The notes: generated by a model from the sequence alone, not told the origin. A stretch of 26,356 nt of DNA from an uncultured archaeon (GCA_964587725.1 CAZPLO010000011.1:13212-39567); one strand, 5' to 3'. Shown: positions 4,056 through 26,356, counted from the first letter of the stretch. Numbers and translations are program-made.

Positions 4056-4415
4056 ATGGGTTACGTGAAATTCGAGGCTCCGAAGGAGCTGCAGGAAAAA
4101 GCCCTGGGCGCGTTGGAGCAGGCCCAGGACACGGGGAAGATAAAGAAGGGCACCAACGAGGTGACGAAGGCCGTGGAACGCGGAAACGCCAAGCTGGTGC
4201 TGATAGGCGGGGACGTTGAGCCGCCGGAGATAGTCATGCACCTGCCGATGCTGTGCGAGGAGAAGAAGATACCGTACATCTACATACCCAAGGCGGACAT
4301 CGGCGCGGCGGTGGGCATACACGTTTCAACCGCAGCTGCATGCATCGTCGAGGAAGGCAAGGCCAAGGACGCGGTAGCCGACGTCGCAGACAAAGTCAAC
4401 GAACTAAAGAAATAA
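4056..4415 (+). CDS. rpl7ae: 50S ribosomal protein L7Ae (eL8)
   Basis: [32 protein letters not shown] and [18 protein letters not shown]. Confidence 0.98.
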
Positions 4416-4416
4416 G

Positions 4417-4608
4417 ATGGTCTCAGCAGAGGTTGTGAAGATAATAGGCCGCACCGGCATATACGGCGAAGTCATGCAGGTGATGTGCAAGGTAGGGGAA
4501 GGCGAGAACAAAGGCCGCATCATCCGCAGAAACGTCAGAACCCCGGTAAGGGAAGGCGACGTCATAGACCTGCGCGAGACCGAACGGGAGGCGAAGCCTC
4601 TGAACTAA
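4417..4608 (+). CDS. rps28e: 30S ribosomal protein S28e
   Basis: [18 protein letters not shown] and [24 protein letters not shown]; conserved position after rpl7ae. Confidence 0.96.
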
Positions 4609-4609
4609 G

Positions 4610-5065
4610 ATGGACTGCAACTTCTGCGGGAGAAAAATACCCGCCGGCACCGACTACATATACGTCACCAGCAAGGGCAAGGCCACCCACTACTGCAGCA
4701 GCAAGTGCATGAAAAACGAGGTCAAACTCAAGCGCAAATCGCGGAAGGTGAAGTGGACCGAAACATACCGCGACGAGAAAAAGGCGCGGCTGAAGACCCT
4801 GGAGCAGAAGCCCGAGAAGGAAAAGGAGAGGCCCGAGAAGGAGGAGGCTGCAGAGAAGAAGGCGGATGAGGGGAAGCCCAAGAAACAGAAGGCTAAAAAG
4901 CAGTCCAAGAAGCAGGCCAAGAAAACCGGGGAAAAGGCCGAGGAGAAGGAATCCGGCGGCGAAAAGAAGGAAGCAGAATCTAAGAACTCCGGGGGGAAGT
5001 CCAAGAAAAAGACCAAAAAGTCCAAGAAAACCAAGAAGAAAGCCAAAAAATCAACGAAGAAATGA
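4610..5065 (+). CDS. rpl24e: 50S ribosomal protein L24e with a long Lys/Glu-rich C-terminal extension
   Basis: CNFCGRKIPAGT...YCSSKC zinc (TRASH) motif and RKVKWT; conserved position after rps28e. Confidence 0.93.
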   Translation: MDCNFCGRKIPAGTDYIYVTSKGKATHYCSSKCMKNEVKLKRKSRKVKWTETYRDEKKARLKTLEQKPEKEKERPEKEEAAEKKADEGKPKKQKAKKQSKKQAKKTGEKAEEKESGGEKKEAESKNSGGKSKKKTKKSKKTKKKAKKSTKK

Positions 5066-5499
5066 AGACGCTCATAATCATGAGGCCCGACGCCGTGACC
5101 CGCGGTCTCGTGGGGGAGATAATCACGCGGTTCGAGAAACACGGCATACGTATTGCAGGCCTAAAGATAATGCAGCTCGCCAAGGCGAGGGCGGAGAAGC
5201 TGTACGAGCAACACCGGGGGAAACCCTACTACGACCGCCTAATAAACAACATGACATCAAACCCGTCGGTTTTCGTGGTATTGGACACCGACGTACTCGA
5301 CCGCGAAAGCGCGATTTCCCTGGTGAGGAAGATTATCGGAGACACAGACCCCGCGAAGGCGGAGATGGGCACAATACGCGGCGACTTCGGGCTGCGGATA
5401 GACCAGAACATAATACACGCGTCCGACAACAAGGAATCCGCTGAACGCGAGATACCCCTCTTCTTCGAGCGGGGGGAGTTGGTGACATACGAGGAATAA
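5062..5499 (+). CDS. ndk: Nucleoside-diphosphate kinase
   Basis: RPDAVTRGLVGEIITRFE, GTIRGDFG and NIIHASD (catalytic His); ATGA overlap with rpl24e. Confidence 0.95.
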   Translation: MKTLIIMRPDAVTRGLVGEIITRFEKHGIRIAGLKIMQLAKARAEKLYEQHRGKPYYDRLINNMTSNPSVFVVLDTDVLDRESAISLVRKIIGDTDPAKAEMGTIRGDFGLRIDQNIIHASDNKESAEREIPLFFERGELVTYEE

Positions 5500-5500
5500 A

Positions 5501-5914
5501 ATGGCAACAGCATATGATGTTCCGGCGAACAAGCTGATAGATGAGATGGCCTCGGACCTGAGGGAGAACGTGAAACTGGGGCGTCCGGAGTGGGCTCTCT
5601 ACGTCAAGACAGGCGCCCACAAGGAGAGGAAACCCGACGACCCGAACTGGTGGTGGACCAGGGCGGCCTCGGTGCTGAGGCGGATATACGTTGAAGGCCC
5701 GGTCGGCGTCCAGAGGCTCCGCACCTTCTACGGCGGCAGGAAAAACAGGGGGGTGAAACCCGAGGAATTCCGGAGGGCCAGTGGCAAGGTCATCCGCACC
5801 CTACTCAAGGAGCTCGACGACGCTGGATTCACCGAATCGGGCAAGAAGGGCCGGAAGATAACGCCGAAGGGCAAGTCGTACGTCGACAGAATATCCTCTA
5901 AAATAGCCCGGTAA
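5501..5914 (+). CDS. rps19e: 30S ribosomal protein S19e
   Basis: TAYDVPA, PEWALYVKTGAHKERKP, WWWTRAASVLRRIY, YGGRKNRGVKP and GRKITPKGKS. Confidence 0.97.
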   Translation: MATAYDVPANKLIDEMASDLRENVKLGRPEWALYVKTGAHKERKPDDPNWWWTRAASVLRRIYVEGPVGVQRLRTFYGGRKNRGVKPEEFRRASGKVIRTLLKELDDAGFTESGKKGRKITPKGKSYVDRISSKIAR

Positions 5915-5916
5915 AG

Positions 5917-6249
5917 ATGTCTGAACTGGAAGAACTCCGCAAGAAGAGGCTGCGGGAACTCCAGGCGATGCAGCAGCAGGGCCGCCAGGAGGGGGTGCAG
6001 CAGCGGCTTGAGGCGCAGGAATTAGACCGTCAGATAAGGCAGATTATGCAGCAGATTATGACTCCTGAGGCGCGTGAACGCCTAGCAAACATCCGAGTGG
6101 CGCGACCGGATTTCGCCCGCCAGGTGGAGATACTGCTTATACAGCTGTACCAGTCCGGCCGGCTTAAAGCATTAGACGACGACCAGTTCAAGGCGCTGTT
6201 GGAGAAGATAAGCGGCAGCCAGCGGGAAACCAAGATAGAGTTCAAATAG
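5917..6249 (+). CDS. PDCD5-like dsDNA-binding protein
   Basis: ELEELRKKRLRELQ, IMTPEARERLANIRVARPDFARQVE and LIQLYQSGR; this family commonly follows rps19e in archaea. Confidence 0.93.
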   Translation: MSELEELRKKRLRELQAMQQQGRQEGVQQRLEAQELDRQIRQIMQQIMTPEARERLANIRVARPDFARQVEILLIQLYQSGRLKALDDDQFKALLEKISGSQRETKIEFK

Positions 6250-13322: not shown

Positions 13323-13862
13323 ATGCGACTGTTCCTTGCCCTCCAATGCAGTGCCGACGTGAGGGAGAAGCTGGCTGCCCTGCAGCCGCAGCTCCTGGAC
13401 ATGGGCAGGTTGAAGGCTGTTGAATCTGAAAACATGCACGTGACGTTGAAGTTCTTGGGGGGCGTGGATGAAGGACGGTTGGGGGCCGTCACGTCCGCGC
13501 TGGAGAAAGTATCTGCCAGTTCCTTCACCGCGGCGGTGGAGGGGTTGGGGGCGTTCCCCAAACCGGATTACCCGCGGGTGGTGTGGGCGGGCCTGTCCGA
13601 CGGATTCGATGAAGCGGTGGAACTGCACTTGAAGGTGGATGAGAGGCTGGCCGGGTTCAAGCCGGACAAACGCTACCACCCCCATGTCACGTTGGCGAGG
13701 GTGAGGGGGCCGGTGGACAAGCCGGGTTTGAAGGCGTTTCTGCAGGCCCATGAAAAAACGGTGTTCGGCTCCTACAGTGTGTCGTCGTTCGACCTTATGG
13801 AGAGCAGACTGTCCCCTAAGGGCCCCACGTACTCTGTGGTTGAAAAGTTCCCCCTGGAGTAG
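13323..13862 (+). CDS. thpR: RNA 2',3'-cyclic phosphodiesterase (2H family, LigT/ThpR)
   Basis: MRLFLAL, two HxT motifs (HVTLKFLG and PHVTLARV), PRVVWAG and ESRLSPKGPTY. Confidence 0.94.
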   Translation: MRLFLALQCSADVREKLAALQPQLLDMGRLKAVESENMHVTLKFLGGVDEGRLGAVTSALEKVSASSFTAAVEGLGAFPKPDYPRVVWAGLSDGFDEAVELHLKVDERLAGFKPDKRYHPHVTLARVRGPVDKPGLKAFLQAHEKTVFGSYSVSSFDLMESRLSPKGPTYSVVEKFPLE

Positions 13863-13895: not shown

Positions 13896-14600
13896 ATGGA
13901 GAAGATAAGCACCGGCGTCTCCGGCCTGGACGAAATGCTCCACGGCGGACTGATAGCTGGAAGGCCCTACCTTATAACCGGCGGCCCCGGAGCCGGGAAA
14001 ACAATAATGTGCATGCAGTTTCTCATGGAGGGCATCAAAAACAACGAGAAATGCCTGTACGTGGCGTTGGAGGAGCAGGCGCAGGAGCTGAAGGAGGACA
14101 TGGCGTCGTTCGGCTGGGACCTGCAGAGGATAAAGATACTCGACACCATGCAGGACATGGCCTCCGGTGTGTGGGCGATAAAGACCGCGGGCGTAATATC
14201 GAAGCCTGAGTTCACGCTGAAGAACCTGATAGAGGCTATACGCAACATCATGGTGTCCTACAAGCCGAAGAGGATGGTCGTCGACTCCCTAACCAGCATC
14301 AAGATGCTGTATGAGAGCATGACGGAAGCCCGCCAGGAGATACTCGGCCTCCTGAACTTCCTTGAGGCGACTGGGTGCACGACCCTGCTGACGTCGGAGT
14401 TGAGCGGCCCGGAGGTGCTGATGGAGGAGTTCCTCACCAGCGGCGTGCTGAAGATACACCTGATAGATAACGAAGGCGAAAGGCTTTCTGCGGTGAGTGT
14501 CCAGAAGATGAGGGGTTCGTCGTTCGACAAGCACATGCGGCCGATGAAGATAACCGACACGGGAATCGTCGTCTTCCCAAACGAGTCCGTGTTCGGCTGA
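13896..14600 (+). CDS. Single-domain KaiC/RAD55-family ATPase (copy 1)
   Basis: STGVSGLDEMLHGG, Walker A GGPGAGKT, ALEE, Walker B VVDSL, TTLLTSE and QKMRGS. TTTTATA just upstream suggests its own short-leader promoter. Confidence 0.93.
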   Translation: MEKISTGVSGLDEMLHGGLIAGRPYLITGGPGAGKTIMCMQFLMEGIKNNEKCLYVALEEQAQELKEDMASFGWDLQRIKILDTMQDMASGVWAIKTAGVISKPEFTLKNLIEAIRNIMVSYKPKRMVVDSLTSIKMLYESMTEARQEILGLLNFLEATGCTTLLTSELSGPEVLMEEFLTSGVLKIHLIDNEGERLSAVSVQKMRGSSFDKHMRPMKITDTGIVVFPNESVFG

Positions 14601-15356
14601 CTACTTGAATATGACCTCTTCGGGGTAGACCTTCAGTCCTTCCTCGGTTATTTTGACCGGGCGTACGCCGCTGTCGTGTGATGTTCCGCGGACCTTCCGC
14701 ACCATCATGCCGCGCTCGAACATCCCGTCTTTCTCGCGCATCATCATGTAGATGACGCCGTCTGACAGGAACATGCTGTCCCGCCAGTAGCCTATGCCCT
14801 CTTCCACGGTGGCGAGCGTCGTCACATCGAGTTTCTTCAAATGTTCGACCAGCCAGATAATCTGCATCCTCGCCACCACCTCAGAGTTGGCGAGCAGTGT
14901 CACGACGGTCAGCGGGTCTATGACCACCCGTTTCGCGCCGATGCTCCTGCAGTTTTCCGCTATCTCCCTGTACAGGGAGTCCACGGTAAGGTACTGCCGC
15001 AGCTGCTCCACCCGCTTCTGGTCCTCTCCGGAGGCGCCTTTTTCGAACGTCGACTCGACGTCGCCGACGATGGATTTGATGTAGGGGATTATCCTCAGTT
15101 TTCCGTCGTCCTCCAGCTTCTTCAAATCCCAGCCGAACCCCTTCATGTTTGAGATGACGCGCTCCCGGTCCTCCTCCAGCATGATGTAGACTCCGGGTTC
15201 GCCGTACTCTACGGCGCCGTTGTATAGGAATCCCATGGACAGTATGCTTTTGCCCGTGCCGGACTCTCCAAGGACGACGTATGTTCCGCCTTCTGGCAGT
15301 CCGCCGTTTAAAAGCTCGTCCAGGCCGGCTACCCCGGACTTGACTCTGCCGTCCAT
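14601..15356 (-). CDS. Single-domain KaiC/RAD55-family ATPase (copy 2)
   Basis: SGVAGLDELLNGG, Walker A GESGTGKS, MLEE, VVIDPL, FLSDGVI and RKVRGTSH. Confidence 0.92.
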   Translation of the reverse strand: MDGRVKSGVAGLDELLNGGLPEGGTYVVLGESGTGKSILSMGFLYNGAVEYGEPGVYIMLEEDRERVISNMKGFGWDLKKLEDDGKLRIIPYIKSIVGDVESTFEKGASGEDQKRVEQLRQYLTVDSLYREIAENCRSIGAKRVVIDPLTVVTLLANSEVVARMQIIWLVEHLKKLDVTTLATVEEGIGYWRDSMFLSDGVIYMMMREKDGMFERGMMVRKVRGTSHDSGVRPVKITEEGLKVYPEEVIFK

Positions 15357-15363
15357 GTCGGGG

Positions 15364-15741
15364 TCAGCCTTTGGAGACGATGCGCATCCCGGCCGGCACC
15401 ACCAGCAGCTTGTCGTCGGACACCCTGCCTATGTCGCCGTCCATCTCCACGCACGCGTCCCTCAAGTCCTTCACAATCCCCTTCAAAAGGGTGCGGTTGT
15501 GCATCAGGGCCTTCACGTTCAGAACCACGACGTTGTTCTTCTCCAGCTCCGCCAGCACGTTCCCCACGCCCTTCCCGTCGCTGTCCAAGTCCAGGGGTTT
15601 AACGTAGGTCACGTCCTCGCTCTCTATGATTTTACCGTCCCTGACGCTCAAGTCGTTAAGGTAGTCTTCTATGTCGATTTCCTCGGAGGAGAATCCATCG
15701 TCTCCGCCCCCGCCGCCTGATAAAAGCTTCCTGAAAACCAT
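15364..15741 (-). CDS. sepF: Cell division protein SepF
   Basis: Amphipathic N-terminus MVFRKLL, acidic linker, then ELEKNNVVVLNVK and MDGDIGRVSDDKLLVVPAGMRI, typical of archaeal SepF. Confidence 0.85.
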   Translation of the reverse strand: MVFRKLLSGGGGGDDGFSSEEIDIEDYLNDLSVRDGKIIESEDVTYVKPLDLDSDGKGVGNVLAELEKNNVVVLNVKALMHNRTLLKGIVKDLRDACVEMDGDIGRVSDDKLLVVPAGMRIVSKG

Positions 15742-15865
15742 GCTTCCACACCTCAAAAAACAGGTTATGAGTATACTAGCATACTATTGTTATTATATGT
15801 TTATAAAGAACCTCCGGCCTCCAGAAGGCATTTTATATATGAATCACATAGTATTGTCCCCCAAG
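15742..15865. promoter_or_regulatory. AT-rich divergent promoter region between sepF and cdc6
   Basis: TTTATAAA (15800-15807) and TTTTATATAT (15831-15840) with approximate dyad symmetry. Confidence 0.6.
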
Positions 15866-17158
15866 ATGTCAGGCAGATTGTTCGACTCGGAACTGAAGGA
15901 CAGCAAAGTCTTCAAGGACCTCAGCGTTTTGAGCCCCCACTACGTGCCTAAGGAGCTGCCCTACCGCAAAAGCGAGATAAAGCAGATAACCAGGGTGTTG
16001 GCGCAGGTGTTTCAGGCTGTGAAACCCCACAACCTCTTCCTATACGGGAAGACGGGGACGGGGAAGACCAGCGTGGTGAAGAACATACTCAGGGACCTGG
16101 AGTCCACATTGGAGGACCGGTCCAAGAACACCAAAGACGTTAACGTCGCCGCATCCTACATGAACTGCCGCCTAGGCTACAACAGCAAATACCAGGTGCT
16201 GCTCCGCATCCTCGAGGAGGAGTCGCTGAACAGGGAGGGCTTGAAGAAGACCCCCATGGAGGGCGTGCGGACGGGGAAGCTGAACGGCCGCTCCCCCACG
16301 GAACTGTTTTCGAGGATGAAGGACGTGGTGGAAGCCAACGCCATACAATTGCTGGTGGTGTTGGACGAGGTGGATATGGTGAGGGACGTGAACGAGCTCA
16401 TGTACATGCTCACCCGCGTCAACGACGACATAGAGGTGAGGGAGGTTGGCGGCAAGGAGAAGCGCGGCAGCGTCTCCATCATCGGCATATCCAACCGCTA
16501 CTCGTTCAAAAACATACTCGACCCCCGCACCAAAAGCACCCTCTGCGAGGAGGAGGTGGTGTTCAAGCCCTACAACGCCAACCAGCTGAAGACCATACTG
16601 GCCCACCGTGTGAAGGCGGGGTTCAGGAAAGGAAGCATCTCCGAATCCAACGTCGCGTTGATTGCCGCGTACGCTGCGCAGACCAACGGCGACGCACGCT
16701 ACGGCCTCCGGCTGCTGCAGAAGGCGGGGGAGATAGCGCAGGCCGACAACAGGAAACGCGTCAAAAAAGAGGACGTTAAGGAGGCTAAAGCCAAGGTGGA
16801 GGAGGACATCATAACCGAGCTCATCACCACGTTGCCGGAGCACCAGCAGATTGTGCTGTATGCGATAGCGGACGCCGTCGTCAGGGGCAGTCAATACAAG
16901 CGACTGTCCGACACGCCGTCGGACGTGTTGTTTTCGGGGGAAGTGTACGAGAACTACGAGAAAATCTGCAAGCATTTGAACCGGAACCCCAGGACGATGC
17001 GGTGGTTCGGCGAGTACCTGAAGGAGCTGGAGATGCTCGGCCTCGTCACATTAACTCTGTCCGGTTCGGGGGTCAGGGGAACAACCACCCTCATCCGCAT
17101 CGGCGGCAGCGCACAGGAGATTAAGAAAATAATCAGCGGCAGCCTAGGTTTAAGTTAG
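15866..17158 (+). CDS. cdc6: Orc1/Cdc6-family replication initiation protein
   Basis: LSPHYVPKELPYR, Walker A YGKTGTGKT, Walker B VVLDEVD, LDPRTKSTL, FKPYNANQLKTIL, GDARYGLRLL and winged-helix LKELEMLGLV. Start set at MSGRLF. Confidence 0.95.
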   Translation: MSGRLFDSELKDSKVFKDLSVLSPHYVPKELPYRKSEIKQITRVLAQVFQAVKPHNLFLYGKTGTGKTSVVKNILRDLESTLEDRSKNTKDVNVAASYMNCRLGYNSKYQVLLRILEEESLNREGLKKTPMEGVRTGKLNGRSPTELFSRMKDVVEANAIQLLVVLDEVDMVRDVNELMYMLTRVNDDIEVREVGGKEKRGSVSIIGISNRYSFKNILDPRTKSTLCEEEVVFKPYNANQLKTILAHRVKAGFRKGSISESNVALIAAYAAQTNGDARYGLRLLQKAGEIAQADNRKRVKKEDVKEAKAKVEEDIITELITTLPEHQQIVLYAIADAVVRGSQYKRLSDTPSDVLFSGEVYENYEKICKHLNRNPRTMRWFGEYLKELEMLGLVTLTLSGSGVRGTTTLIRIGGSAQEIKKIISGSLGLS

Positions 17159-18354
17159 TCCCTGATGAATCCCGTGAACGCGGTCACGGCGATGAAAACC
17201 ACTCCCAGTGCCGCGAACGTCATATCCAATCCTATGAACTGCGCCAGTACTCCGCCGCCGAACGGCCCCACCACATAGCCTAAGTCGCGGGCGGTGCTCC
17301 ACACCCCCACCACGGAACCGCGTTCACCGGCGTCGGACTTCACAGTCAAAATGCCCTCCATGCTCGGCCACGCCAGAGCCAACCCTGTGGTGGCGAGGAA
17401 GGCGGCGGCGAACAAACCGTAGACGTCGTCGGCCATGCCGAACGCTATGGAAAAAACGCCCGCCGCCAGCAACCCTGCCGCAAGGGTCTTCCTCCTGCCG
17501 AACCGGTCCGCCAGCCACCCGCCCGGCGCCTCCAAGAATATCAGGGGCAATACGAACGCCGACATTATAATGCCGCCCACCAGGGCGTCGGAGGTGAATT
17601 CCCTGTAGTACAGGGGCTCTAGCACCCACACCATGCCGTCGTAGAAGCTGAACAGGAACGTCATCAACAGTATCACCAGGCCGGTGGACTTGAGTTTCCG
17701 GTAATCCGCCAGCTCCCTCAGGAACACGCGGTCCTTCACCACCAGGTCCCTGATTCCGTCCACAACGCGCCCGCCCCTGCCGTCGCCGAGAAACCACAGG
17801 TAGGCGATTACGAACGCGGCCGCCGAACCGAGGAAGTACATGATGGCGCCTGCCTCCAGCATGGTGGAACCCGCCAACAGCATGACTCCAGCAACAACGG
17901 GCCCTAACGCATAGCCTGAGTGGACGAAACCCATCTCCACCCCCAGGTACTCGGAACTCTCCGCGTCGGGGCTGATGTTCATCACATAGGCCATCGCGGG
18001 TATGTAGACGGTCTGATAAAGCAGCCCCAGCAGCAGGAGGAAGGCAGCCAGCGTCCACACGCTGTTCACCAGGGTGAAGTTGAGGCCCAGCAGCGCCAGA
18101 CCCGCCAACCCGGTCAGCAGAACCTTCCTGCCGCCTATGCGGTCGCAGAGGTCTCCTATAGGCAGGTCGACGAACATCGCAACCAAACCCGGCAGCGACA
18201 TCAGAAGTCCCACCACAGCTAAATCTTTGACCAGCGACTCCGCCACCTGAGGCAGCAGAAACCATAGGCCGCCGCTGCCGACGGTCCAAGCAACCAGCAC
18301 GCCGCCGACACGCAGTAGAAGCCGGTAGCCTTTGAAGCGCCGAAGGTAACGCAT
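17155..18354 (-). CDS. MFS transporter
   Basis: About 12 hydrophobic segments; motif A occurs twice (GDLCDRIGGRK and GWLADRFGRRK). Confidence 0.92.
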   Translation of the reverse strand: MRYLRRFKGYRLLLRVGGVLVAWTVGSGGLWFLLPQVAESLVKDLAVVGLLMSLPGLVAMFVDLPIGDLCDRIGGRKVLLTGLAGLALLGLNFTLVNSVWTLAAFLLLLGLLYQTVYIPAMAYVMNISPDAESSEYLGVEMGFVHSGYALGPVVAGVMLLAGSTMLEAGAIMYFLGSAAAFVIAYLWFLGDGRGGRVVDGIRDLVVKDRVFLRELADYRKLKSTGLVILLMTFLFSFYDGMVWVLEPLYYREFTSDALVGGIIMSAFVLPLIFLEAPGGWLADRFGRRKTLAAGLLAAGVFSIAFGMADDVYGLFAAAFLATTGLALAWPSMEGILTVKSDAGERGSVVGVWSTARDLGYVVGPFGGGVLAQFIGLDMTFAALGVVFIAVTAFTGFIRD

Positions 18355-18375
18355 GTTAAGTATTAGTCGAGGCGT

Positions 18376-19680
18376 TTAATAGGCCCGGAACTTGACCTCG
18401 TCCATGTCCTGCATCAGCAGCTCCAAATCCCGCTCCGTCAGCACAACCGGGTCTATGTAGACTATGAGGCTGCACCCGCTCTCAGAAATCATGTCGCGGA
18501 CGTGCTGGACGGTGTGGAGAACCCGTTTGAAGTCGTTGTGCTCTATGAGATAGGACAGGGGCTCCAGAAAAACAACGCCCTGTTCGCCCTCACCCATCTT
18601 GCCTATGAACCTGCTCACCACGTTAGACACGCCAACCAAATCCGTGGGGGTGAGGTGCGGCTCCTCAGTCTTTATGTCCGTCACCCACACTATGGGGGTG
18701 GTTGCGAGGCCGTAGTTCTCCCTTATCCGCTCAGGGTTGGTTCTGGAGATGCACAGACCCACCATGCCGTGCTTGACCATGTCCACGAACGCCCTGTAGC
18801 TCTCCATAGGCTTCTTCTCCTCTATGAGGTAGGTCATCCCCGGCTCCAGAGCGGACTCCAGGGGGGTTTCCTTCAGTCGTTCCTCCACCTTCGGGACCAC
18901 CTCCAGTATGATGGACCGCATAGCCTTCGACAAATCTGTCTGAGTCACTATCCCCGCCAGTTCACCGTCTTCGACCACCGGAAGACGCCTGAAACCCCCG
19001 TCTTCCATCATCTTGCTGGTGCTGTACACCGACATCTCGGAGTCGACGGTTAAAACAGGGGAGGTCATGACTTCTTCAACGCTGGTTTTCTCGGGGTCCA
19101 TGCCTCCCACGAGAACCCTGTTCAACACGTCCTTCTCGGTTAGGATGCCCGCCACTTCATCACCGTCAACGACAACAACCGAGCCCACGTTCTTGGCGGT
19201 CATCCTCCTGGCGGCGTCGACCACCAGGTCTTTGCCTCCGACGGTGACGACCTCCTTGGTCATCACGTGCTCGACCTTGCGCCATATGCCGGTGGACTCC
19301 ATGGCGCGGGCGATGTCGGTCTCGGTGACTATGCCCACCAGTTCCCCGCCGTCCACGATGGGCAGCCGGCGGAACCCGTGGGAGTGCATCACCTCGCTCG
19401 CGTCAAGAAGGGGTGTGCATGCTTCAACCGAAACAGCAGGCGACGACATCATGTCCGCGACACTCATGTGGTCGTCGCCTCCGGAGGACACGTAGCGGAG
19501 CAGGTCCGTTTCAGTGAGGATACCTGTTACTTCCCCGTCTTCCACGACAACCAGGGAGCCTATGCCGCGTTCGGCCATGACCTTCACCGCATCCGCTATC
19601 GGCTGCCCGGCTTCGACCACCGCGACGTCGCGGGTCATTATCCCCCCGACGGTCTTCTCAACACCCGATTCGTCGGCCAT
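18376..19680 (-). CDS. Four CBS domains fused to a C-terminal DUF835-like (degenerate KaiC-like) domain
   Basis: Repeated VT/LAGIL/VTETD, MSSP/MTSP and FRRLPI/VV CBS units; C-terminal GLCISRTNPERI, PIVWVT, VVFLEPLSYLIEHNDF and LIVYIDP match the DUF835 pattern. Confidence 0.85.
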   Translation of the reverse strand: MADESGVEKTVGGIMTRDVAVVEAGQPIADAVKVMAERGIGSLVVVEDGEVTGILTETDLLRYVSSGGDDHMSVADMMSSPAVSVEACTPLLDASEVMHSHGFRRLPIVDGGELVGIVTETDIARAMESTGIWRKVEHVMTKEVVTVGGKDLVVDAARRMTAKNVGSVVVVDGDEVAGILTEKDVLNRVLVGGMDPEKTSVEEVMTSPVLTVDSEMSVYSTSKMMEDGGFRRLPVVEDGELAGIVTQTDLSKAMRSIILEVVPKVEERLKETPLESALEPGMTYLIEEKKPMESYRAFVDMVKHGMVGLCISRTNPERIRENYGLATTPIVWVTDIKTEEPHLTPTDLVGVSNVVSRFIGKMGEGEQGVVFLEPLSYLIEHNDFKRVLHTVQHVRDMISESGCSLIVYIDPVVLTERDLELLMQDMDEVKFRAY

Positions 19681-19715
19681 GGCGTTTAACTATCGGGGCG
19701 GGGGTTTAAATCCGT

Positions 19716-20354
19716 TCAGACCTCCTTCAGACTCTCCTTCAGTTTCTCCGTGGTTTTGAAGTGGGTTTTAGCGACTTCGTCGAGTCTCCCGAGGCCGTAG
19801 AGTTCCGTGAACGTCTTCCCGGCCTCGATGACCTCGGATGCGCCTTTGGGGAATACTACGCCGTAGCGGTGCCTCATCCTCTCCAGCGCCTTCAAATAGC
19901 CGGCGCGCGCCAGTATCGACGCCGCGGCAACAGCCAGGTCGGATTCGGCGCGGTGGCGCTGGGCCAGCGTCACCTTCCGGCCCTCCTCCATAAGCCGCTC
20001 CTGCAGGAAGTGTTCGTCGCCGAACTGGTCTGCCACCACCCTCGTGCATTTGACGCGGGTGAGCAGGTTCTCTATGGCGCGGGCGTGCGCCCAAGCCAGC
20101 AGGACGTTCAGGTTCTCGAGTTTACTGTATAGTGTGTTGTATTTCTTCGGCCCTATCAACACCACGTCGTGTTCGAATTCTTCGCGGAGGTTTTTGTCGA
20201 TGGACAGTATTCTGTCGTCCCTGATTTTCTTGCTGTCCCTGACTCCAAGTCTCCTGAGTTTCTTCTCGTCGCCCCTGCCCACGCAGACTGCCGCCGCAAC
20301 CAGGGGGCCGAAGTAGTCGCCCTTCCCGGACTCGTCCGTGCCGATGCGCTCCAT
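19716..20354 (-). CDS. rnhC: Ribonuclease HIII-type RNase H, catalytic domain only
   Basis: IGTDESGKGDYFGPL, GVRDSKK, YNTLY, LLAWAHARAIENL, ADQF, AESDLAVAAASILAR, PKGAS and AKTHFKT are HIII-type rather than archaeal HII (DEAGRGP) signatures. Confidence 0.88.
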   Translation of the reverse strand: MERIGTDESGKGDYFGPLVAAAVCVGRGDEKKLRRLGVRDSKKIRDDRILSIDKNLREEFEHDVVLIGPKKYNTLYSKLENLNVLLAWAHARAIENLLTRVKCTRVVADQFGDEHFLQERLMEEGRKVTLAQRHRAESDLAVAAASILARAGYLKALERMRHRYGVVFPKGASEVIEAGKTFTELYGLGRLDEVAKTHFKTTEKLKESLKEV

Positions 20355-20405
20355 TTTGAAATTATTTTTAATATTTTGAATATTTTAAAAATTATTTATA
20401 CTATC

Positions 20406-20837
20406 TCATCTCCAGTCGGGCTTCACCCACGTCTGGAACATGACCTTTATCAAATCAGGGAGATGGGAGACGATGTCCATCACCGTCACTATCCCCACCA
20501 CCATGTTGGCTTCGTTCACCACAGCCAGACGCCTCACCCGGTGCTCGCCCATCAACTTCACCGCCTTCTCCACGCTGTTGAGGGGGTGGACGCTTAACAC
20601 CGGCGACGACATCACCTCCCGGACCTCGACGTCGGCGGCTTCTTTGCCGGCCACCAGAACCTTCCTGAATATGTCGTTCGTGGTCACCACTCCCACAGCC
20701 TTCCCCTCTTCCACCACAATCATGCCGCTGATGTTGTGTGAAACCAGCTTCTTGGCTGCGGAATCCACCCTCTCCTCAGGCGACACGGTTATGAGTCTGG
20801 TGGACATGATGTCCTTCACCAGCATGGTATTAAACAT
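20406..20837 (-). CDS. Stand-alone CBS-pair protein
   Basis: VKDIMST, VGVVTTNDI, VREVMSSPV, VRRLAVV and VGIVTVMDI. Start is 20837 or 20825. Confidence 0.92.
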   Translation of the reverse strand: MFNTMLVKDIMSTRLITVSPEERVDSAAKKLVSHNISGMIVVEEGKAVGVVTTNDIFRKVLVAGKEAADVEVREVMSSPVLSVHPLNSVEKAVKLMGEHRVRRLAVVNEANMVVGIVTVMDIVSHLPDLIKVMFQTWVKPDWR

Positions 20838-20856
20838 AAGGACTCTGTTTATATGT

Positions 20857-21303
20857 ATGGACTACCGGGTCTTCCAGGGCAGAGTAAGCCTGTTGTGCGT
20901 GGGCAACGAACTCAACGGAGACGACGCGTTCGGCAGGCACCTGGCCGATACGCTGGAAGAAGACGGTGAAATGCAGGTGTTGTTCGCCTCCACAGCACCT
21001 GAAAACTTCGTCGGCGAAGTAATCGACTTCAAACCGGAAAGGGTGGTTGTTGTGGATGCAGGCGACTTCGGCGGCCGCCCTGGCGAAATACGGCGGCTTC
21101 AGCAGGACGAGCTGCAGTCCGTCCACGTATCAACGCACAGGATGCCCATGAAGGTGCTGGCGAGACAGTTCAAGGAAGAAGGAGTTGACACGGCATTCGT
21201 CGCTGTTCAGGCCCGCCACTTCACCCCTGGAGAAGAAATGAGTGAAGAGTTGGAGGCCGCGTTGGATGAGCTCGCCGGGAACATACTGTCTGTCAGGGCT
21301 TGA
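20857..21303 (+). CDS. hycI: Hydrogenase maturation endopeptidase, HycI type
   Basis: CVGNELNGDDAFG, APENF, VVDAGDFGGRPGEI and STHRMP. Start set at MDYRVF. Confidence 0.9.
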   Translation: MDYRVFQGRVSLLCVGNELNGDDAFGRHLADTLEEDGEMQVLFASTAPENFVGEVIDFKPERVVVVDAGDFGGRPGEIRRLQQDELQSVHVSTHRMPMKVLARQFKEEGVDTAFVAVQARHFTPGEEMSEELEAALDELAGNILSVRA

Positions 21304-21547
21304 CCCTCTCCCGCATCTCCTCCAGCTTATCCTTCAGCGAGTCGCCTTCATACAGGTATTCGACCAGCAACCCCTTGTCGCGTATGCCGTCGAGCATCTC
21401 CATGCTCAGTATCGGCAAATCTATCTTCACGTCCTCGTCCAGCGGGTTGCCCACTACAACGTCTATGAAGTCCGACTTCACCACCCTCTCCACAAAATAG
21501 CCGCCGAGGTTTATCACCAGCCCGGACTCGAACACTATCTTGGTCAT
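21293..21547 (-). CDS. ehbP: Energy-converting hydrogenase B subunit P-like
   Basis: INLGGYFVE and VVVGNPLDEDVKIDLP resemble EhbP; ATGA overlap with ehbO; it is the C-terminal 84 aa of track ORF 21293..22327. Confidence 0.75.
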   Translation of the reverse strand: MTKIVFESGLVINLGGYFVERVVKSDFIDVVVGNPLDEDVKIDLPILSMEMLDGIRDKGLLVEYLYEGDSLKDKLEEMRERVKP

Positions 21548-22602
21548 AGTATCACCGCCGCAAGTGCTATTACGCCGATCAACGTGGCAGTGAACGACAC
21601 CCTGTATACCTGCTTGAACGTGAACACGGGACTGAACGCCTTCAGTATGGCGGCTGCAGCGGGCAGAGCGGTCAGCAGTATCAGATGCAGCAAGGCGGTG
21701 CCCGGGAACCGGACGTCGAACGGTATGCCCAGGAACAACGTGATGAACAGGCTGGAGAGTGTGAACGACAGCAGCCCCGTGAGCAGGTAATACAGGCCCC
21801 TCCACACCGCCGCGTACTCCATCATCGGACCCTCTATGATGTCGACCTTCGGCTTCACGATGTCGAACGGCCGGTTGTTTGTGACAATATTGTATCCTAT
21901 GAAGTACACGCCCGCCGCCAGAAGCCCGGGAATCGTCAGCAGGAAGGGGTTGAGGCTGGCCAGCGTCGAAGGCATGCATTCCGCCGTGAACAGGAAACCT
22001 GTCCCGTAGTTGCCCGCGTACACGGGGTTCTGCGGCAGCACCACGTCCTGTATGCTCATGCTGCCCGCGGCAGCGAACGGCACCAGCAACGCCACGTAGA
22101 AGGGGAACGACCCCAGCGTAATCATCTTCAGCGCCCTGACCGACGCTATCTGCTCGAAAAACCTTCTCGGCGCGTCCCGGAACGCGGCGTATTTGACGGT
22201 GTCCGCCCACGGCAGGCCCACTGACATAACGGACCTGCTGAACGAACCCATCATCATGTAGGAAACCTCCTCCAGCTTCAGCAGGCCCAGTATCCCCAGT
22301 ACGGAGCCGAAACCCAGTATGCCCCACCAGAAGGGGGTGGAGAACAAAAGGATGAAGGCGACGGAGCCGAGCGACATCAGCAACAGAATATGGTACACTC
22401 CGGGGTTGGGGCTGTGTTCCTTGACCGTCTTCTTGTAGCGGAACTTCAGCATGTTCCAGAACCCCGGCGTGGTGACCGGCGGGCCGATGCGCTGCTGCAG
22501 ACGCGCCTGAATCTTACGCTCCAGCCCGGGGATGAAGACGGCGTCCGCCACCGCAATGACGAGGGACACGATGCTTCCAACAGCCACGTCAACGGGGTTC
22601 AT
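21544..22602 (-). CDS. ehbO: Energy-converting hydrogenase membrane subunit, NuoH-like (EhbO)
   Basis: GLERKIQARLQQRIGPP.TTPG and PFDIVKPKVDIIEGPMMEY with multiple TM segments. Start MNPVDV overlaps the ehbN stop. Confidence 0.88.
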   Translation of the reverse strand: MNPVDVAVGSIVSLVIAVADAVFIPGLERKIQARLQQRIGPPVTTPGFWNMLKFRYKKTVKEHSPNPGVYHILLLMSLGSVAFILLFSTPFWWGILGFGSVLGILGLLKLEEVSYMMMGSFSRSVMSVGLPWADTVKYAAFRDAPRRFFEQIASVRALKMITLGSFPFYVALLVPFAAAGSMSIQDVVLPQNPVYAGNYGTGFLFTAECMPSTLASLNPFLLTIPGLLAAGVYFIGYNIVTNNRPFDIVKPKVDIIEGPMMEYAAVWRGLYYLLTGLLSFTLSSLFITLFLGIPFDVRFPGTALLHLILLTALPAAAAILKAFSPVFTFKQVYRVSFTATLIGVIALAAVIL

Positions 22603-23741
22603 TTCTTCACCTCGCTGAAGTCTACCAGTGTCTCCTCGCCGGTTCTTGCGTCCTTTACCAACGCCCGGTTGGCGCAGCATATGCAGGGGTCGCATGAAAT
22701 CACCGTGAGTATTCCGTCCGTCAAATGGTCTCCGACACACGCCTGCTCCACCGCGGCGAGGTTGGTGGTGGTGGGCGGCCGTATCCTGTAGTTGCGGACC
22801 TTCCCGTGCGCGTCTATGCGGAGCGAATGGAACAATTCCCCGCGGGGAGCCTCCATGTAGGATGTCGCGAACCCCGTGTCCAGCGGCGGCTTATGCGGCG
22901 TCACCAGGTCCCCCTCCGGCAGGTCGTCGAGTATCTGCCGTATGACCTTTATGGACTCGAACACCTCCAGGCAGCGCGCCACCACCCTGGCCTTGTTGTC
23001 GCCGTCCTCCAATACTATCATGTCGAAGTCTATGCCCTCGTACTCCGGAATCTCCTTCCGCCAGTCCCATTTGACGCCGGAGGCCCTGGCGGTCGGCCCC
23101 ACCGCATGCGTGGCTTCAGCCACCTTCCTGCTCATCACGCCGGTGCCTTCGAGGCGGGACATTATCATGGGGTCGTTGAGCACGCGGTCCACCATTTTGC
23201 CGAGGGTGTTCTCGAGTTCATCCACCATCCCCGACACCTTAGCCCTTGTCTGGCTGTCGAGGTCGCAGCGCGGCCTTATGCCTCCGATGATGGGTATGGC
23301 GTAGTGGACGCGGTTGCCGGACACCTCCTGCAGTATCCTCATCACCGGCTCCCGCATGGCGAAGCTCCTGTAGGAGAATGTTTCATGACCCAGGACTTCG
23401 AATGCGTGGCCGAAGAACAATGTGTGGGAGTGCAGCCGCTCCAGCTCGGCGCCCAGAATCCGTATGCTGTTGGCGCGGTCCGATATCCCTATGCCGCCCG
23501 CCATCTCCGTGACCCTGCAGGAACTCCACAAGTGGATGTGGGAGCATATGCCGCACACCCGCTCCGTTATCATGTTCGCCTTCTTGATGGGGACTCCCTC
23601 GAGTATCCTCTCTATGCCTCGGTAGACGGCGTTGAATGTTATCTCGCAGTCTTCGACGACCTCGTCTTCGACGAGAAAACGTATCCTGAACGGCTCCAGC
23701 ATGGTGGGGTGGACTATGCCCACGGGCACCTCCTCTTTCAC
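22599..23741 (-). CDS. ehbN: Group 4 [NiFe]-hydrogenase large subunit (EhbN)
   Basis: L1 motif ERVCGICSH, ELERLHSH, EAPRGE and L2 motif CDPCICCANR. GTG start overlaps the ehbM stop (GTGA). Confidence 0.92.
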   Translation of the reverse strand: MKEEVPVGIVHPTMLEPFRIRFLVEDEVVEDCEITFNAVYRGIERILEGVPIKKANMITERVCGICSHIHLWSSCRVTEMAGGIGISDRANSIRILGAELERLHSHTLFFGHAFEVLGHETFSYRSFAMREPVMRILQEVSGNRVHYAIPIIGGIRPRCDLDSQTRAKVSGMVDELENTLGKMVDRVLNDPMIMSRLEGTGVMSRKVAEATHAVGPTARASGVKWDWRKEIPEYEGIDFDMIVLEDGDNKARVVARCLEVFESIKVIRQILDDLPEGDLVTPHKPPLDTGFATSYMEAPRGELFHSLRIDAHGKVRNYRIRPPTTTNLAAVEQACVGDHLTDGILTVISCDPCICCANRALVKDARTGEETLVDFSEVKK

Positions 23742-24187
23742 GGCCCCGCCTCCACAATCTTCGGAATAAGCGATGCGACGCCCGCAATAATGTCCTCGGG
23801 CCGCGGCGGGCATCCCGGCACCGACGCGTCCACCGGCAGTACCTTATGGAGTGGTCCCACCACCTGGTCTGCGGGCCCCAGTTCGCCGTACACGTTCAGG
23901 TATATGTCGCCTACGATGGGGCAGGAGCCGACCGCAACAACCGCCTTCGGCTCCGGAATGCTCTCGTATATCGCCTTCAGCGGCTCTTTCGTGCGTCTTG
24001 TCACGGGGCCCGTAACCAACAGTATGTCGGCTTCCCGGGGGTTCCAGGTGACGAACACCCGGTACTGCTCCAGGTCATAGTACGGCGACAGGAGGGCGTT
24101 GACCACTTCGATGTCGCAGCCGTTGCACCCGCCGGTGTACACGAGCATCACGTGTATTGACCGTTTCCTCGCAGCCTCCTTAAGCAT
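23738..24187 (-). CDS. ehbM: [NiFe]-hydrogenase small subunit, NuoB-like (EhbM)
   Basis: GGCNGCDIE, WNPREADILLVTGPVT, AVGSCP and VPGCPPRP. Confidence 0.93.
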   Translation of the reverse strand: MLKEAARKRSIHVMLVYTGGCNGCDIEVVNALLSPYYDLEQYRVFVTWNPREADILLVTGPVTRRTKEPLKAIYESIPEPKAVVAVGSCPIVGDIYLNVYGELGPADQVVGPLHKVLPVDASVPGCPPRPEDIIAGVASLIPKIVEAGP

Positions 24188-24608
24188 CGTCTCCCTCCTT
24201 TTTCTTGAACAGGTCCTGGGCCTTGATGCCGGACACCCTGTTGCCTCTGGGGTGTATGGCAGACTGTTTTTTATGGACCGTGAAGGTGGGGCAGTTGTCG
24301 TGGCACTGGAAGCAGTACATGCACTTCATGTGGTCTATTTCGGGAATCTTCTCCTTATACCGGTTCTCCGTCAACCGTATCTTTTCGGGCAGGGGCTTCA
24401 TGGTTATGGCCTTCACCGGGCATATGTTGGCGCAGACGCCGCAGCCGAGGCACAGGTCCTCGTCTATGTTCTTCAAAGGCTCCACATTCCCCGACAGTAT
24501 ATTGTCGCGCATCCTCATGTCGTTGAGCCTGCCGGAGCCGAACAGTATCCTGGGTATGTTGCGGAACCCGAACACCGTGTGCTTCAGCGCCTTCAAAACC
24601 GCTTTCAT
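24180..24608 (-). CDS. ehbL: 2[4Fe-4S] ferredoxin-like subunit, NuoI-like (EhbL)
   Basis: CLGCGVCANICP and CMYCFQCHDNCP followed by AIHPR. Confidence 0.88.
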   Translation of the reverse strand: MKAVLKALKHTVFGFRNIPRILFGSGRLNDMRMRDNILSGNVEPLKNIDEDLCLGCGVCANICPVKAITMKPLPEKIRLTENRYKEKIPEIDHMKCMYCFQCHDNCPTFTVHKKQSAIHPRGNRVSGIKAQDLFKKKEGDDA

Positions 24609-24814
24609 GTTTTCCTCCGACCGCCCAACGCGGCCCCCAAAACAGCCGACACGTACGCCGTCGACACGCCCTCCACCGGGTAGTGTGGGTAGTTGCCCAG
24701 CAGAACCGCTATTATTACTCCGGCGGCTATTAAAAGCAGGGCGTCGGTACCGCGCACCCTGCTGCCGTAGAAGATGCCGAACGCGAACGCCACCGCATAC
24801 ACTACGGGGTTCAC
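24605..24814 (-). CDS. ehbJ: Small membrane subunit, EhbJ-like
   Basis: 69-aa hydrophobic protein with LGNYPHY; GTGA and ATGA overlaps on both sides; position after ehbI. Confidence 0.6.
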
Positions 24815-25530
24815 CGTCTGGCCCCCAGCATCACCAGCATCGCCGTGGTGAGGCCTGCGGAAACCTTAATCAGCACCGCAATGTTGAGGTACGGTATTAT
24901 GCCCGCGCCGACCCCGTCTGGGTAGTTGAACGCCTCCGCCGCGGGAGCAATGTTGTATGCGTCGACGCCGACGTTGTAGAGGAAGTAGCCCGTGAACGCG
25001 AGGCCGATTAGGCCGAGTGTTATGTACAGCAGTGCGCCGGCGGATTCCATCTTCACCAGGAGGCTGTGTGGCATGTTGAGGCCTGCGCGTCCGAACACCA
25101 GCAGCGTCAGCAGGAAACCCGCCGCCACCACCGCGCCGCCCTGGAAGCCGCCTCCGGGGGTAATATGGCCTCCCAGGGTCACGTACACTCCGGCCGCCAC
25201 TATAAGGAGGGTTAGAACGGGAGTGAACGTCTTGAGTATGAGTGTGCCGTGGAGGTTCGCGTCCTCCGTCTCATGGCTGTCTCCCGTCAGCAGGCCGCGG
25301 CCGTACAGCATCGAAACCGCCAACACGCCGGAGACGAGGATTATCGCCTCGCCGAGGGTGTCGTATCCTCTGAAATCGAACAGCACGGCGGTGACGCGGT
25401 TAGGCGCAACATTTGAACCGAAGAGGTTGTAGACTTCGCTTATGCCCGGCAGCACCGACATGCTCGTGAGCGCGTTCAGCAGCGTGAACGCCACCACCGC
25501 GAACGCCGCGGCTGCTAGAACCCTTTTCAC
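24811..25530 (-). CDS. Fused EhbH-EhbI (MnhB-like) membrane subunit
   Basis: [20 protein letters not shown] (EhbH-like) and [14 protein letters not shown]...[14 protein letters not shown] (EhbI/MnhB-like) lie in one frame. GTG start at 25530. Confidence 0.82.
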
Positions 25531-25829
25531 GCCAGCCACCCCGTCAACGCCAGGCACGCCGCCAGCGTCAGAATGAGATAGTACATGAGCGTCTGTATGC
25601 GGTCGTCGTTTTCAGTGAACACGTCGAAGGTCAATACTCTGTTCCGCATTGCCAGGAACACAGCCAGCGCCGCGGCCGCGCCAAAGTACAGGTTCACCAT
25701 CCGGGCTGCGAGGAACGCCAGCAGTATGAACGCGAGGGTGCTCTGGTACTCCACCGCAATCGCGGAGGCGGAGTGTATGCTGTCGCCTTCGCCGCGGCCC
25801 CTCAACGTGTCAAGCAGTCTCTGATACAT
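25527..25829 (-). CDS. ehbG: Membrane subunit, EhbG-like
   Basis: 100 aa with three hydrophobic segments and [12 protein letters not shown]; lies between the ehbF-like and ehbH-like genes. Confidence 0.6.
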
Positions 25830-25830
25830 C

Positions 25831-26356
25831 TTACCTCCAGGCGAACCCCACCTCACGGGCTATCGGCTCTATGTATTGTGTAGCCAGCTGCGGGTACACG
25901 CCCAGCACCAGGCACAGCCCCACCAGTATCACCAGCGCCAGCAGATACGTCTTCGGCACATTCGACGCGGGTTTTTCGTTGTCGTCCCGCGGCCGCAGGA
26001 ACGCGAGGTGGAACGCCTTCATCATCGAAATGAAGGTGAGCACGCTCACCAGAATCATGACGGCGGTTATCTCCGGCATCCCCGCGTCCAACGCAGACGT
26101 CATCAGCATCAGCTTGCTCTGGAAGCCGTTGAACGGCGGAATACCGGATATCGCGAACTTCGCCCCCAAAACCAGCAGCCCCACGGCTGGGAGCGTGTGT
26201 ATTGCGCCGCCGAGGTTTTTGAAGTCCGAGTTCCCGTTTTTTTCCACGCACTCGCAGCCGATGAACAAGGCGGTCTTGTAGAGGACGTGGTTGACGGCGT
26301 GGAATACGCCTGCGAGTACCGCCACCGGCGTGCCGATGCTTATGCCTGAGGCAACG
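25831..26356 (-). CDS. ehbF: Antiporter-like MnhD/NuoM-family subunit (EhbF), 5' end outside the window
   Basis: FHAVNHVLYKTALF, LGG and AISGIPPFNGFQSK. Confidence 0.85.
   Translation of the reverse strand, partial: VASGISIGTPVAVLAGVFHAVNHVLYKTALFIGCECVEKNGNSDFKNLGGAIHTLPAVGLLVLGAKFAISGIPPFNGFQSKLMLMTSALDAGMPEITAVMILVSVLTFISMMKAFHLAFLRPRDDNEKPASNVPKTYLLALVILVGLCLVLGVYPQLATQYIEPIAREVGFAWR

Follow-up and report, generated by a model that had tools for sequence, protein, structure and literature searches.

In most archaea that have been studied the replication origin (oriC) adjoins the gene of the initiator protein, orc1/cdc6, and Sulfolobus oriC1 and Pyrococcus oriC are examples of such an arrangement. 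Archaeal KaiC-like ATPases are said to form signalling pairs with inactivated KaiC homologs (DUF835/MEDS), and in Synechococcus KaiC reportedly gates cell division in a circadian manner. It is not settled how archaea coordinate the initiation of replication with FtsZ-based division, and for most of their KaiC-like ATPases no target is known. Here we examine a 7-kb locus in which genes for two KaiC-like ATPases, sepF, orc1/cdc6, a fusion of four CBS domains with DUF835, and a stand-alone pair of CBS domains are found together. The locus occupies positions 13,896 to 20,837 of a stretch of 26,356 nucleotides, referred to below as the window (GCA_964587725.1, CAZPLO010000011.1:13212-39567), which belongs to a metagenome-assembled genome of the Altiarchaeota (1.56 Mb in 48 contigs, 92% complete). 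A reading of the sequence alone (the sequence-only reading) had taken these six genes for a single circuit that relays adenylate charge to division and replication.

According to the cited parts of two reports, SepF is the membrane anchor of FtsZ in archaea (Pende et al. 2021, PMC8178401; Nussbaum et al. 2021, cited in PMC7617429). The same parts of Pende et al. describe the genomic context of archaeal sepF as 'more variable' and name neither cdc6 nor KaiC as its neighbor, whereas here sepF has both. The text of the supplements to that report contains no cdc6, orc1 or KaiC, and full-text literature searches turned up no description of a sepF-orc1 pair, which the image of Supplementary Fig. 13 of PMC8178401 may nevertheless show.

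We compared the locus with genomes of the same phylum (61 in all, every one a draft assembly and one of them a single contig). The comparison indicates that the 7-kb cluster is probably made up of three separately inherited pieces that happen to lie side by side. The first would be an old housekeeping block in which glmS and the NAC gene point in one direction and ligT and kaiC1 in the other. The second would be a divergent pair of sepF and orc1/cdc6 on a short A+T-rich spacer, conserved in Altiarchaeota and in at least one other phylum of small-genome archaea, to which three genera (g1, g3 and g4) appear to have added a lineage-specific KaiC2, placed second in the sepF operon. The third would be a variable same-strand run, in the order CBS pair, RNase H, 4xCBS-DUF835 fusion and transporter of the major facilitator superfamily (MFS), which only the closest relatives have in common. 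Two of the links survive the comparison, and these are robust and constitute the real content of the locus: the link between sepF and cdc6 is ancient, and the link between sepF and kaiC2 is clade-specific but strict. The features of the second piece, mapped like all others from open reading frames (ORFs), reading of the sequence and scans with protein family models, are as follows.

14601-15356, minus strand: KaiC2, a single-domain KaiC-like ATPase of 251 amino acids (PF06745, E=2.9e-59)
15364-15741, minus strand: sepF, 125 amino acids, with an ATG start at 15741 that was read from the sequence (PF04472, E=3.6e-9, 37.2 bits against a cut-off of 27)
15742-15865, no strand: A+T-rich spacer of 124 bp between sepF and cdc6, from reading of the sequence
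15866-17158, plus strand: orc1/cdc6, 430 amino acids, with an ATG start at 15866 (TIGR02928, 335 bits against 181.3; Cdc6_lid and Cdc6_C domains)

Both members of the divergent pair match their family models above the cut-off. An alignment of 21 SepF orthologs shows a short N-terminal hydrophobic and basic segment, a Gly-rich linker and a C-terminal core; the PF04472 core, the N-terminal segment and the linker are all conserved, and this is the same plan of membrane segment, linker and C-terminal core that the cited part of Pende et al. 2021 (PMC8178401) gives for archaeal SepF. The genome (G000) also holds three FtsZ/tubulin-family matches, all on other contigs. The Cdc6 protein has AAA+, lid and winged-helix domains above the family cut-off and a Walker A motif GKTGTGKT, and it is the only Cdc6_C (PF09079) match in this 92%-complete genome.

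SepF matches are present in 59 of the 61 genomes of the phylum. Of the 58 other genomes in which sepF was matched we sampled the sepF loci of 38 (family f8 and 20 genomes were left out), taking up to about 9 kb on either side of the best sepF match and mapping 15 proteins of the window onto them. In 35 of these 38 loci sepF and cdc6 are divergent neighbors, and the spacer between them measures 66-239 bp in the 34 Altiarchaeota loci where it could be measured. Two of the three loci that lack the pair end at a contig edge (L011 and L018), and the third (L012, genome G029) has no cdc6 within 19 kb. The pair is maintained even in the most distant family, f9, where the identity of SepF has dropped to only about 30% and the 13 other window genes that were tested have all gone from the vicinity of sepF. 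In the one genome of the order that is a single contig (G026, 1.39 Mb), neither the SepF protein nor the Pfam model gave a match.

The pair also extends beyond the phylum. With a profile built from 13 Cdc6 sequences we obtained 80 cdc6 loci in public genomes, and in 40 of them sepF is divergent and adjacent, with a gap of 40-446 bp; this count is a lower bound, since the SepF profile was derived from Altiarchaeota. In the rest, sepF is nearby in another arrangement (3 loci) or is not found in the flank (32), or there is too little upstream sequence (5). Among loci labelled as Micrarchaeota and having enough flank, 19 of 50 carry the divergent adjacent sepF (these 19 are among the 40). In a second phylum of small-genome archaea, reached through locus L098, 60 of 61 genomes contain sepF (61 matches), and cdc6 is divergent and adjacent in 28 of the 30 sepF loci examined there; one of the other two lies at a contig start and one is without cdc6. 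The sepF/orc1 pair is therefore a robust, deep feature shared across phyla of small-genome archaea.

Such an arrangement suggests that the FtsZ anchor and the replication initiator could be co-regulated by two back-to-back archaeal promoters within the spacer. TATA-like boxes are visible there when the sequence is read, and an 11-nucleotide direct repeat (15780-15790 and 15847-15857) is present in two copies that are identical at 10 of 11 positions and spaced 67 nucleotides apart. One copy of the repeat lies near the presumed transcription start of each gene. Spacers are poorly conserved between families, and alignment by eye reveals only the TATA-like boxes and the ribosome-binding site of sepF in common. 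The spacers of family f9 (L024-L029) carry a conserved box of about 14 nucleotides (consensus CCACCCAAACTATA) upstream of a conserved TATA-like element, and this box is not seen in other families. A scan for sigma-70 promoters, which has no relevance for archaea, gave no hits.

The spacer may alternatively be, or contain, a replication origin, so that sepF would have been kept beside it for an origin-proximal benefit in dosage or timing and not for a shared promoter. The usual position of oriC beside orc1/cdc6 speaks for an origin, as do the single cdc6 detected in the genome and the A+T-richness and direct repeat of the spacer. Moreover, according to gene calls supported by Pfam (a crude ORF caller miscalls the NAC region) the 26-kb window has no non-coding stretch above about 165 bp, and therefore the 124-bp spacer is the only candidate that adjoins cdc6. 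The window resembles Sulfolobus oriC1 and Pyrococcus oriC in the single orc1/cdc6 gene and the A+T-rich region upstream of it; it differs from them in that this region is only 124 bp long, is shared with sepF, and has no initiator-box repeats that we could recognize. The 11-nucleotide direct repeat is the only one that the 124-bp spacer yielded, and an inverted pair of initiator boxes, in particular, was not found in it, although no canonical box motif was searched for. Lengths of 66-239 bp are short for an archaeal origin, the sequence of the spacer is not kept from one family to another, and dyad symmetry is no more frequent than in shuffled sequences (3 of the 35 spacers rank above 95% of their mononucleotide shuffles, roughly as many as chance would give). 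With these points against it, we consider it unlikely that an origin is what holds the pair together.

The second surviving link joins sepF to KaiC2. Orthologs of KaiC2 with 57-65% identity are found in six other genomes of genera g1, g3 and g4, so that the gene is present in 7 of the 61 genomes, and all seven have it on the strand of sepF and immediately downstream of that gene. The gap is 7 nucleotides in the window and 16-47 nucleotides in five relatives where it was measured. The same strand, the short gap, and an adjacency kept wherever KaiC2 exists are what is expected of an operon. KaiC2 matches PF06745 with 200.7 bits and KaiC1 with 196.5 bits against a cut-off of 26.6, both along profile positions 1-230 of 231, and each has a Walker A motif, a catalytic EE pair and a Walker B motif (GESGTGKS, LEE and VID in KaiC2; GGPGAGKT, LEE and VVD in KaiC1), in agreement with the intact Walker motifs of the sequence-only reading. 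The motifs of KaiC2 are invariant in the six orthologs, except for a single G-to-C change in L001. The two proteins are only 32% identical and fall into separate, fully supported clades (100/100 for KaiC2 and 100/99 for KaiC1), neither of which is the supported sister of the other. Among 5.8 billion proteins, about 20 cluster representatives show at least 55% identity to KaiC2, and all of those that are named belong to Altiarchaeota; the next-best matches reach at most 39%. Judged by these identities, KaiC2 is a subfamily confined to Altiarchaeota. Literature searches turned up no KaiC-like gene inside a sepF operon.

Presumably co-transcribed with sepF, KaiC2 could act as an ATP-dependent regulator, probably hexameric and possibly autophosphorylating, on SepF or on the divisome. 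A precedent, albeit a loose one, is offered by Synechococcus, where the ATPase activity of KaiC is linked to the formation of the FtsZ ring (Dong 2010, as cited in bioRxiv 10.1101/183558). As far as that citing source goes, the two cases are alike in that an ATPase of the KaiC family is, or for KaiC2 would be, tied to division, in Synechococcus through the formation of the FtsZ ring. They differ in that Synechococcus KaiC is a two-domain protein that operates together with KaiA and KaiB and exerts its effect indirectly, by way of an output pathway, while KaiC2 is a single-domain paralog within the operon of an FtsZ anchor, with no clock implied. Neither KaiC1 nor KaiC2 is a circadian KaiC proper: both are single-domain proteins, and they score 153 and 152 bits against 408 for TIGR02655 and 121 and 119 bits against 546 for NF006799. 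By this analogy a switch acting on SepF or the divisome seems a plausible role for KaiC2. Prediction of a complex between KaiC2 and SepF, from alignments of 6 and 21 rows respectively, gave a score of 0.00 in a run made without controls, and it is evidence neither for nor against such a role.

Another KaiC-like gene is found with sepF in the L098 clade. On the minus strand of L098, sepF is followed by an overlapping gene for a 239-amino-acid protein and then by an overlapping KaiC-like gene, and all three are divergent from cdc6. This four-gene order is kept in all eight genomes that hold an ortholog of this KaiC-like protein (41 relatives were searched). The protein is 28% identical to KaiC2 and 27% identical to KaiC1, no closer than ordinary paralogs are, and therefore it looks as if a KaiC-like gene was recruited independently into the sepF operon of this clade. 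We treat this as weak evidence, because KaiC near sepF is seen in a single one of the 30 second-phylum loci sampled and KaiC-like genes are common.

The gene in the middle of the L098 operon (L098:955-1674, minus strand) has orthologs in L131-L137; the proteins of the eight genomes are 214-239 amino acids long and 70-83% identical, and the ends of the gene overlap both sepF and the KaiC-like gene. The 239-amino-acid protein has no Pfam match at E<=0.001; by eye its sequence follows what we take to be a PepSY-like pattern, and a C-terminal hydrophobic tail is present in three copies. It is a candidate for a new divisome-associated membrane protein.

Taken one step further, the sepF/orc1 unit might be a deeply conserved DPANN-type device that couples expression of the initiator and of the FtsZ anchor through one short control region, and into which KaiC-like ATPases (KaiC2 in Altiarchaeota and an unrelated paralog in the L098 clade) have repeatedly been plugged, via the sepF operon, as an ATP-dependent switch on SepF or the divisome. 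We put this forward only tentatively and regard it as rather doubtful. If it is true, this would be the first case, cyanobacteria aside, of a KaiC-like ATPase whose target in cell division is defined. The nearly universal divergent sepF/orc1 pair, present in at least two phyla, offers a concrete and testable locus for the coordination of replication with division, and KaiC2, which accompanies sepF wherever it occurs, allows a specific hypothesis on the role of one KaiC paralog, something that is rarely available.

Several points weigh against the roles proposed here for the spacer and KaiC2 and against the division of the cluster into separate pieces. Only spacing and strand point to a sepF-kaiC2 operon and to a shared promoter region of sepF and cdc6. 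KaiC2 is absent from 54 of the 61 genomes, including G004 of genus g4, and is therefore dispensable for the function of SepF. A KaiC-like gene is near sepF in just 1 of the 30 loci sampled in the second phylum, and the L098 case could have arisen by an insertion at random and been passed on by descent, KaiC-like genes being abundant in archaea. With so little conservation of the spacer between families, a common regulatory site is not supported. Finally, the clustering itself is improbable under random placement, which would fit a functional cluster assembled recently in genus g1. Nevertheless, the comparative data speak mostly for a cluster put together from separately inherited pieces, and the genes on either side of the sepF/cdc6 pair, listed below, bear on this.

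13323-13862, plus strand: ligT/thpR, RNA 2',3'-cyclic phosphodiesterase (TIGR02258, 145.9 bits against a cut-off of 65.7; PF02834, E=9.8e-27)
13896-14600, plus strand: KaiC1, a single-domain KaiC-like ATPase of 234 amino acids (PF06745, E=5.6e-58, full length)
17155-18354, minus strand: MFS transporter (PF07690, E=7e-44)
18376-19680, minus strand: 4xCBS-DUF835 fusion, 434 amino acids (CBS in four stretches, E=2.2e-56; DUF835, E=1.7e-28)
19716-20354, minus strand: type-2 RNase H (HII/HIII catalytic domain), 212 amino acids (PF01351, E=9.5e-29; TIGR00716, 177 bits against 161.2)
20406-20837, minus strand: stand-alone CBS pair, 143 amino acids (PF00571 in two stretches, E=2e-28)

Family scans thus confirmed all six genes that had been named from the sequence, each at its place, and added two within the 7-kb span that had been overlooked, the MFS transporter and the type-2 RNase H. 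On the low-coordinate side of sepF, the genes of KaiC1 and KaiC2 are convergent and abut each other, and ligT precedes kaiC1 on the same strand at a distance of 33 nucleotides. Orthologs of KaiC1 (54-83% identity) are present in 33 of the 61 genomes. Among 24 loci with KaiC1, 21 have ligT upstream of it on the same strand and 19 have sepF as its neighbor. Four loci show KaiC1 and sepF apart, and there KaiC1 remains with glmS-NAC-ligT and sepF with cdc6; ligT is one member of a conserved glmS-NAC-ligT-kaiC1 block. In G026 (L128) an ortholog of KaiC1 is located between a KaiC2-like fragment and a gene with CBS domains.

On the other side, the MFS gene is convergent with cdc6, which it overlaps by 4 nucleotides, and is the last in a minus-strand run that begins with the CBS pair and continues through RNase H and the CBS-DUF835 fusion with gaps of 51, 35 and 21 nucleotides. 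Outside the window, the MFS, RNase H and CBS pair genes are seen again in no more than a few loci, all of family f1; MFS is next to cdc6 in only 5 of the 38 loci from relatives, and the CBS pair is near sepF only in four loci of genera g1 and g4. Relatives of the CBS-DUF835 fusion exist in 10 of the 61 genomes; G000, G001 and G004 are the only ones in which they lie close to sepF, and elsewhere they are 54 kb away or on other contigs. The score of the RNase H exceeds the cut-off of the model for RNase HIII, but only profile positions 83-284, the catalytic part, are matched, and it is therefore an HIII-like enzyme without the N-terminal domain.

DUF835 is included among inactivated KaiC-like domains in the cited part of PMC5847659. 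The DUF835 part of the fusion has no GxxxxGK[ST] motif in residues 289-425 and hence no P-loop, and it is a predicted inactive KaiC-like domain. In other respects too the locus resembles the KaiC and DUF835/MEDS signalling pairs, with single-domain ATPases that have intact motifs, a DUF835 without P-loop fused to a sensor (four CBS domains), and many paralogs. Unlike in such pairs, DUF835 and KaiC are not adjacent here and their linkage is not conserved: the fusion lies 3 kb from KaiC2 with sepF, cdc6 and MFS in between, and no KaiC-like and DUF835 genes that are adjacent or in one operon, and kept so in relatives, were found in the window. The adjacent pairs of this genome are on other contigs. 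Each of the three KaiC-like genes examined there is directly beside an inactive KaiC-like partner: one on C38 is divergent from a DUF835 protein at 42 bp, one on C5 (75735-77146) is on the same strand as a DUF7504/KaiC-like protein and 50 bp from it, and one on C6 (35075-36951) overlaps by 4 nucleotides the gene of a protein containing DUF7504. Proteins with DUF7504 (PF24336), which give weak hits to the KaiC family, thus appear to be a second type of inactive KaiC partner in G000 besides DUF835. The CBS-DUF835 fusion of the window does not look like a dedicated KaiC partner; it could instead serve as a nucleotide-sensing partner of one of the 16 KaiC-like ATPases of the genome, with no specific tie to this locus.

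These results bear directly on the single circuit proposed before, in which CBS-DUF835 would read adenylate charge and relay it through oligomers of KaiC1 and KaiC2 to SepF and Cdc6, and which might have been assembled recently within the genus. The six genes, together with MFS and RNase H, are found in identical order in the same-genus genome G001 (L001), and DUF835, lacking activity, is of the type of KaiC-like domain that the cited part of PMC5847659 proposes as a partner for KaiC-like ATPases. The genome as a whole contains 16 full-length KaiC-like genes (25 PF06745 matches), 5 DUF835 genes and about 14 CBS genes (33 CBS matches, grouped by us), from which simple arithmetic gives an expectation of about 0.08 KaiC-like, 0.02 DUF835 and 0.06 CBS genes per 7-kb span. 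With totals this small, two KaiC, one DUF835 and two CBS genes within 7 kb are improbable under random placement. However, such a circuit calls for genes that stay linked in relatives, and the full set of six recurs in no genome other than G001. Outside genus g1 it breaks up: of the 10 genomes with CBS-DUF835 only 3 have it near sepF, and KaiC2 is confined to the seven genomes described above. KaiC1 goes with ligT when the block is broken. The fusion and the KaiC genes are in different same-strand runs, with sepF, cdc6 and MFS between them, whereas the three pairs examined elsewhere in the genome are directly adjacent. A circuit of this kind is accordingly quite improbable; as a conserved system, the "adenylate-sensing cell-cycle circuit" is not supported and should not be carried forward. 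What does persist in relatives are two of its parts, since the connection of division with replication stands as the deeply conserved divergent sepF/cdc6 pair, though not as part of a six-gene set, and the connection of KaiC with division stands as the strict adjacency of sepF and KaiC2, though not for KaiC1. We also considered whether CBS genes are enriched near KaiC genes, as 5 of about 14 lie within 5 kb of one; what stands between them on C5 and C6 are unrelated genes, PdxS and SerRS among them, and we rejected this as a coincidence.

That sepF, cdc6 and KaiC are adjacent through inherited synteny with no function, merely because small genomes rearrange little, is very improbable: the order glmS-NAC-ligT-kaiC1-sepF-cdc6, with its unrelated housekeeping genes, is indeed kept through much of the order, but in family f9 and in the second phylum sepF-cdc6 persists when all other tested neighbors are gone, and no KaiC2 occurs away from sepF.

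Two further groups of genes were noted in the window. On the plus strand at 4056-6249, genes for L7Ae, a short ORF, L24e, a nucleoside diphosphate kinase, S19e and a dsDNA-binding protein (PF01984) follow one another and form a translation-related cluster with an embedded ndk. Directly beside the 7-kb cluster, at 20840-26356, there are genes of a membrane-bound energy-converting [NiFe] hydrogenase (Mbh/Ehb-like), among them a HycI-type maturation protease, an EhbP-like protein, NuoH-, NuoD- and NuoB-like proteins, a ferredoxin, MnhB and antiporter-like subunits.

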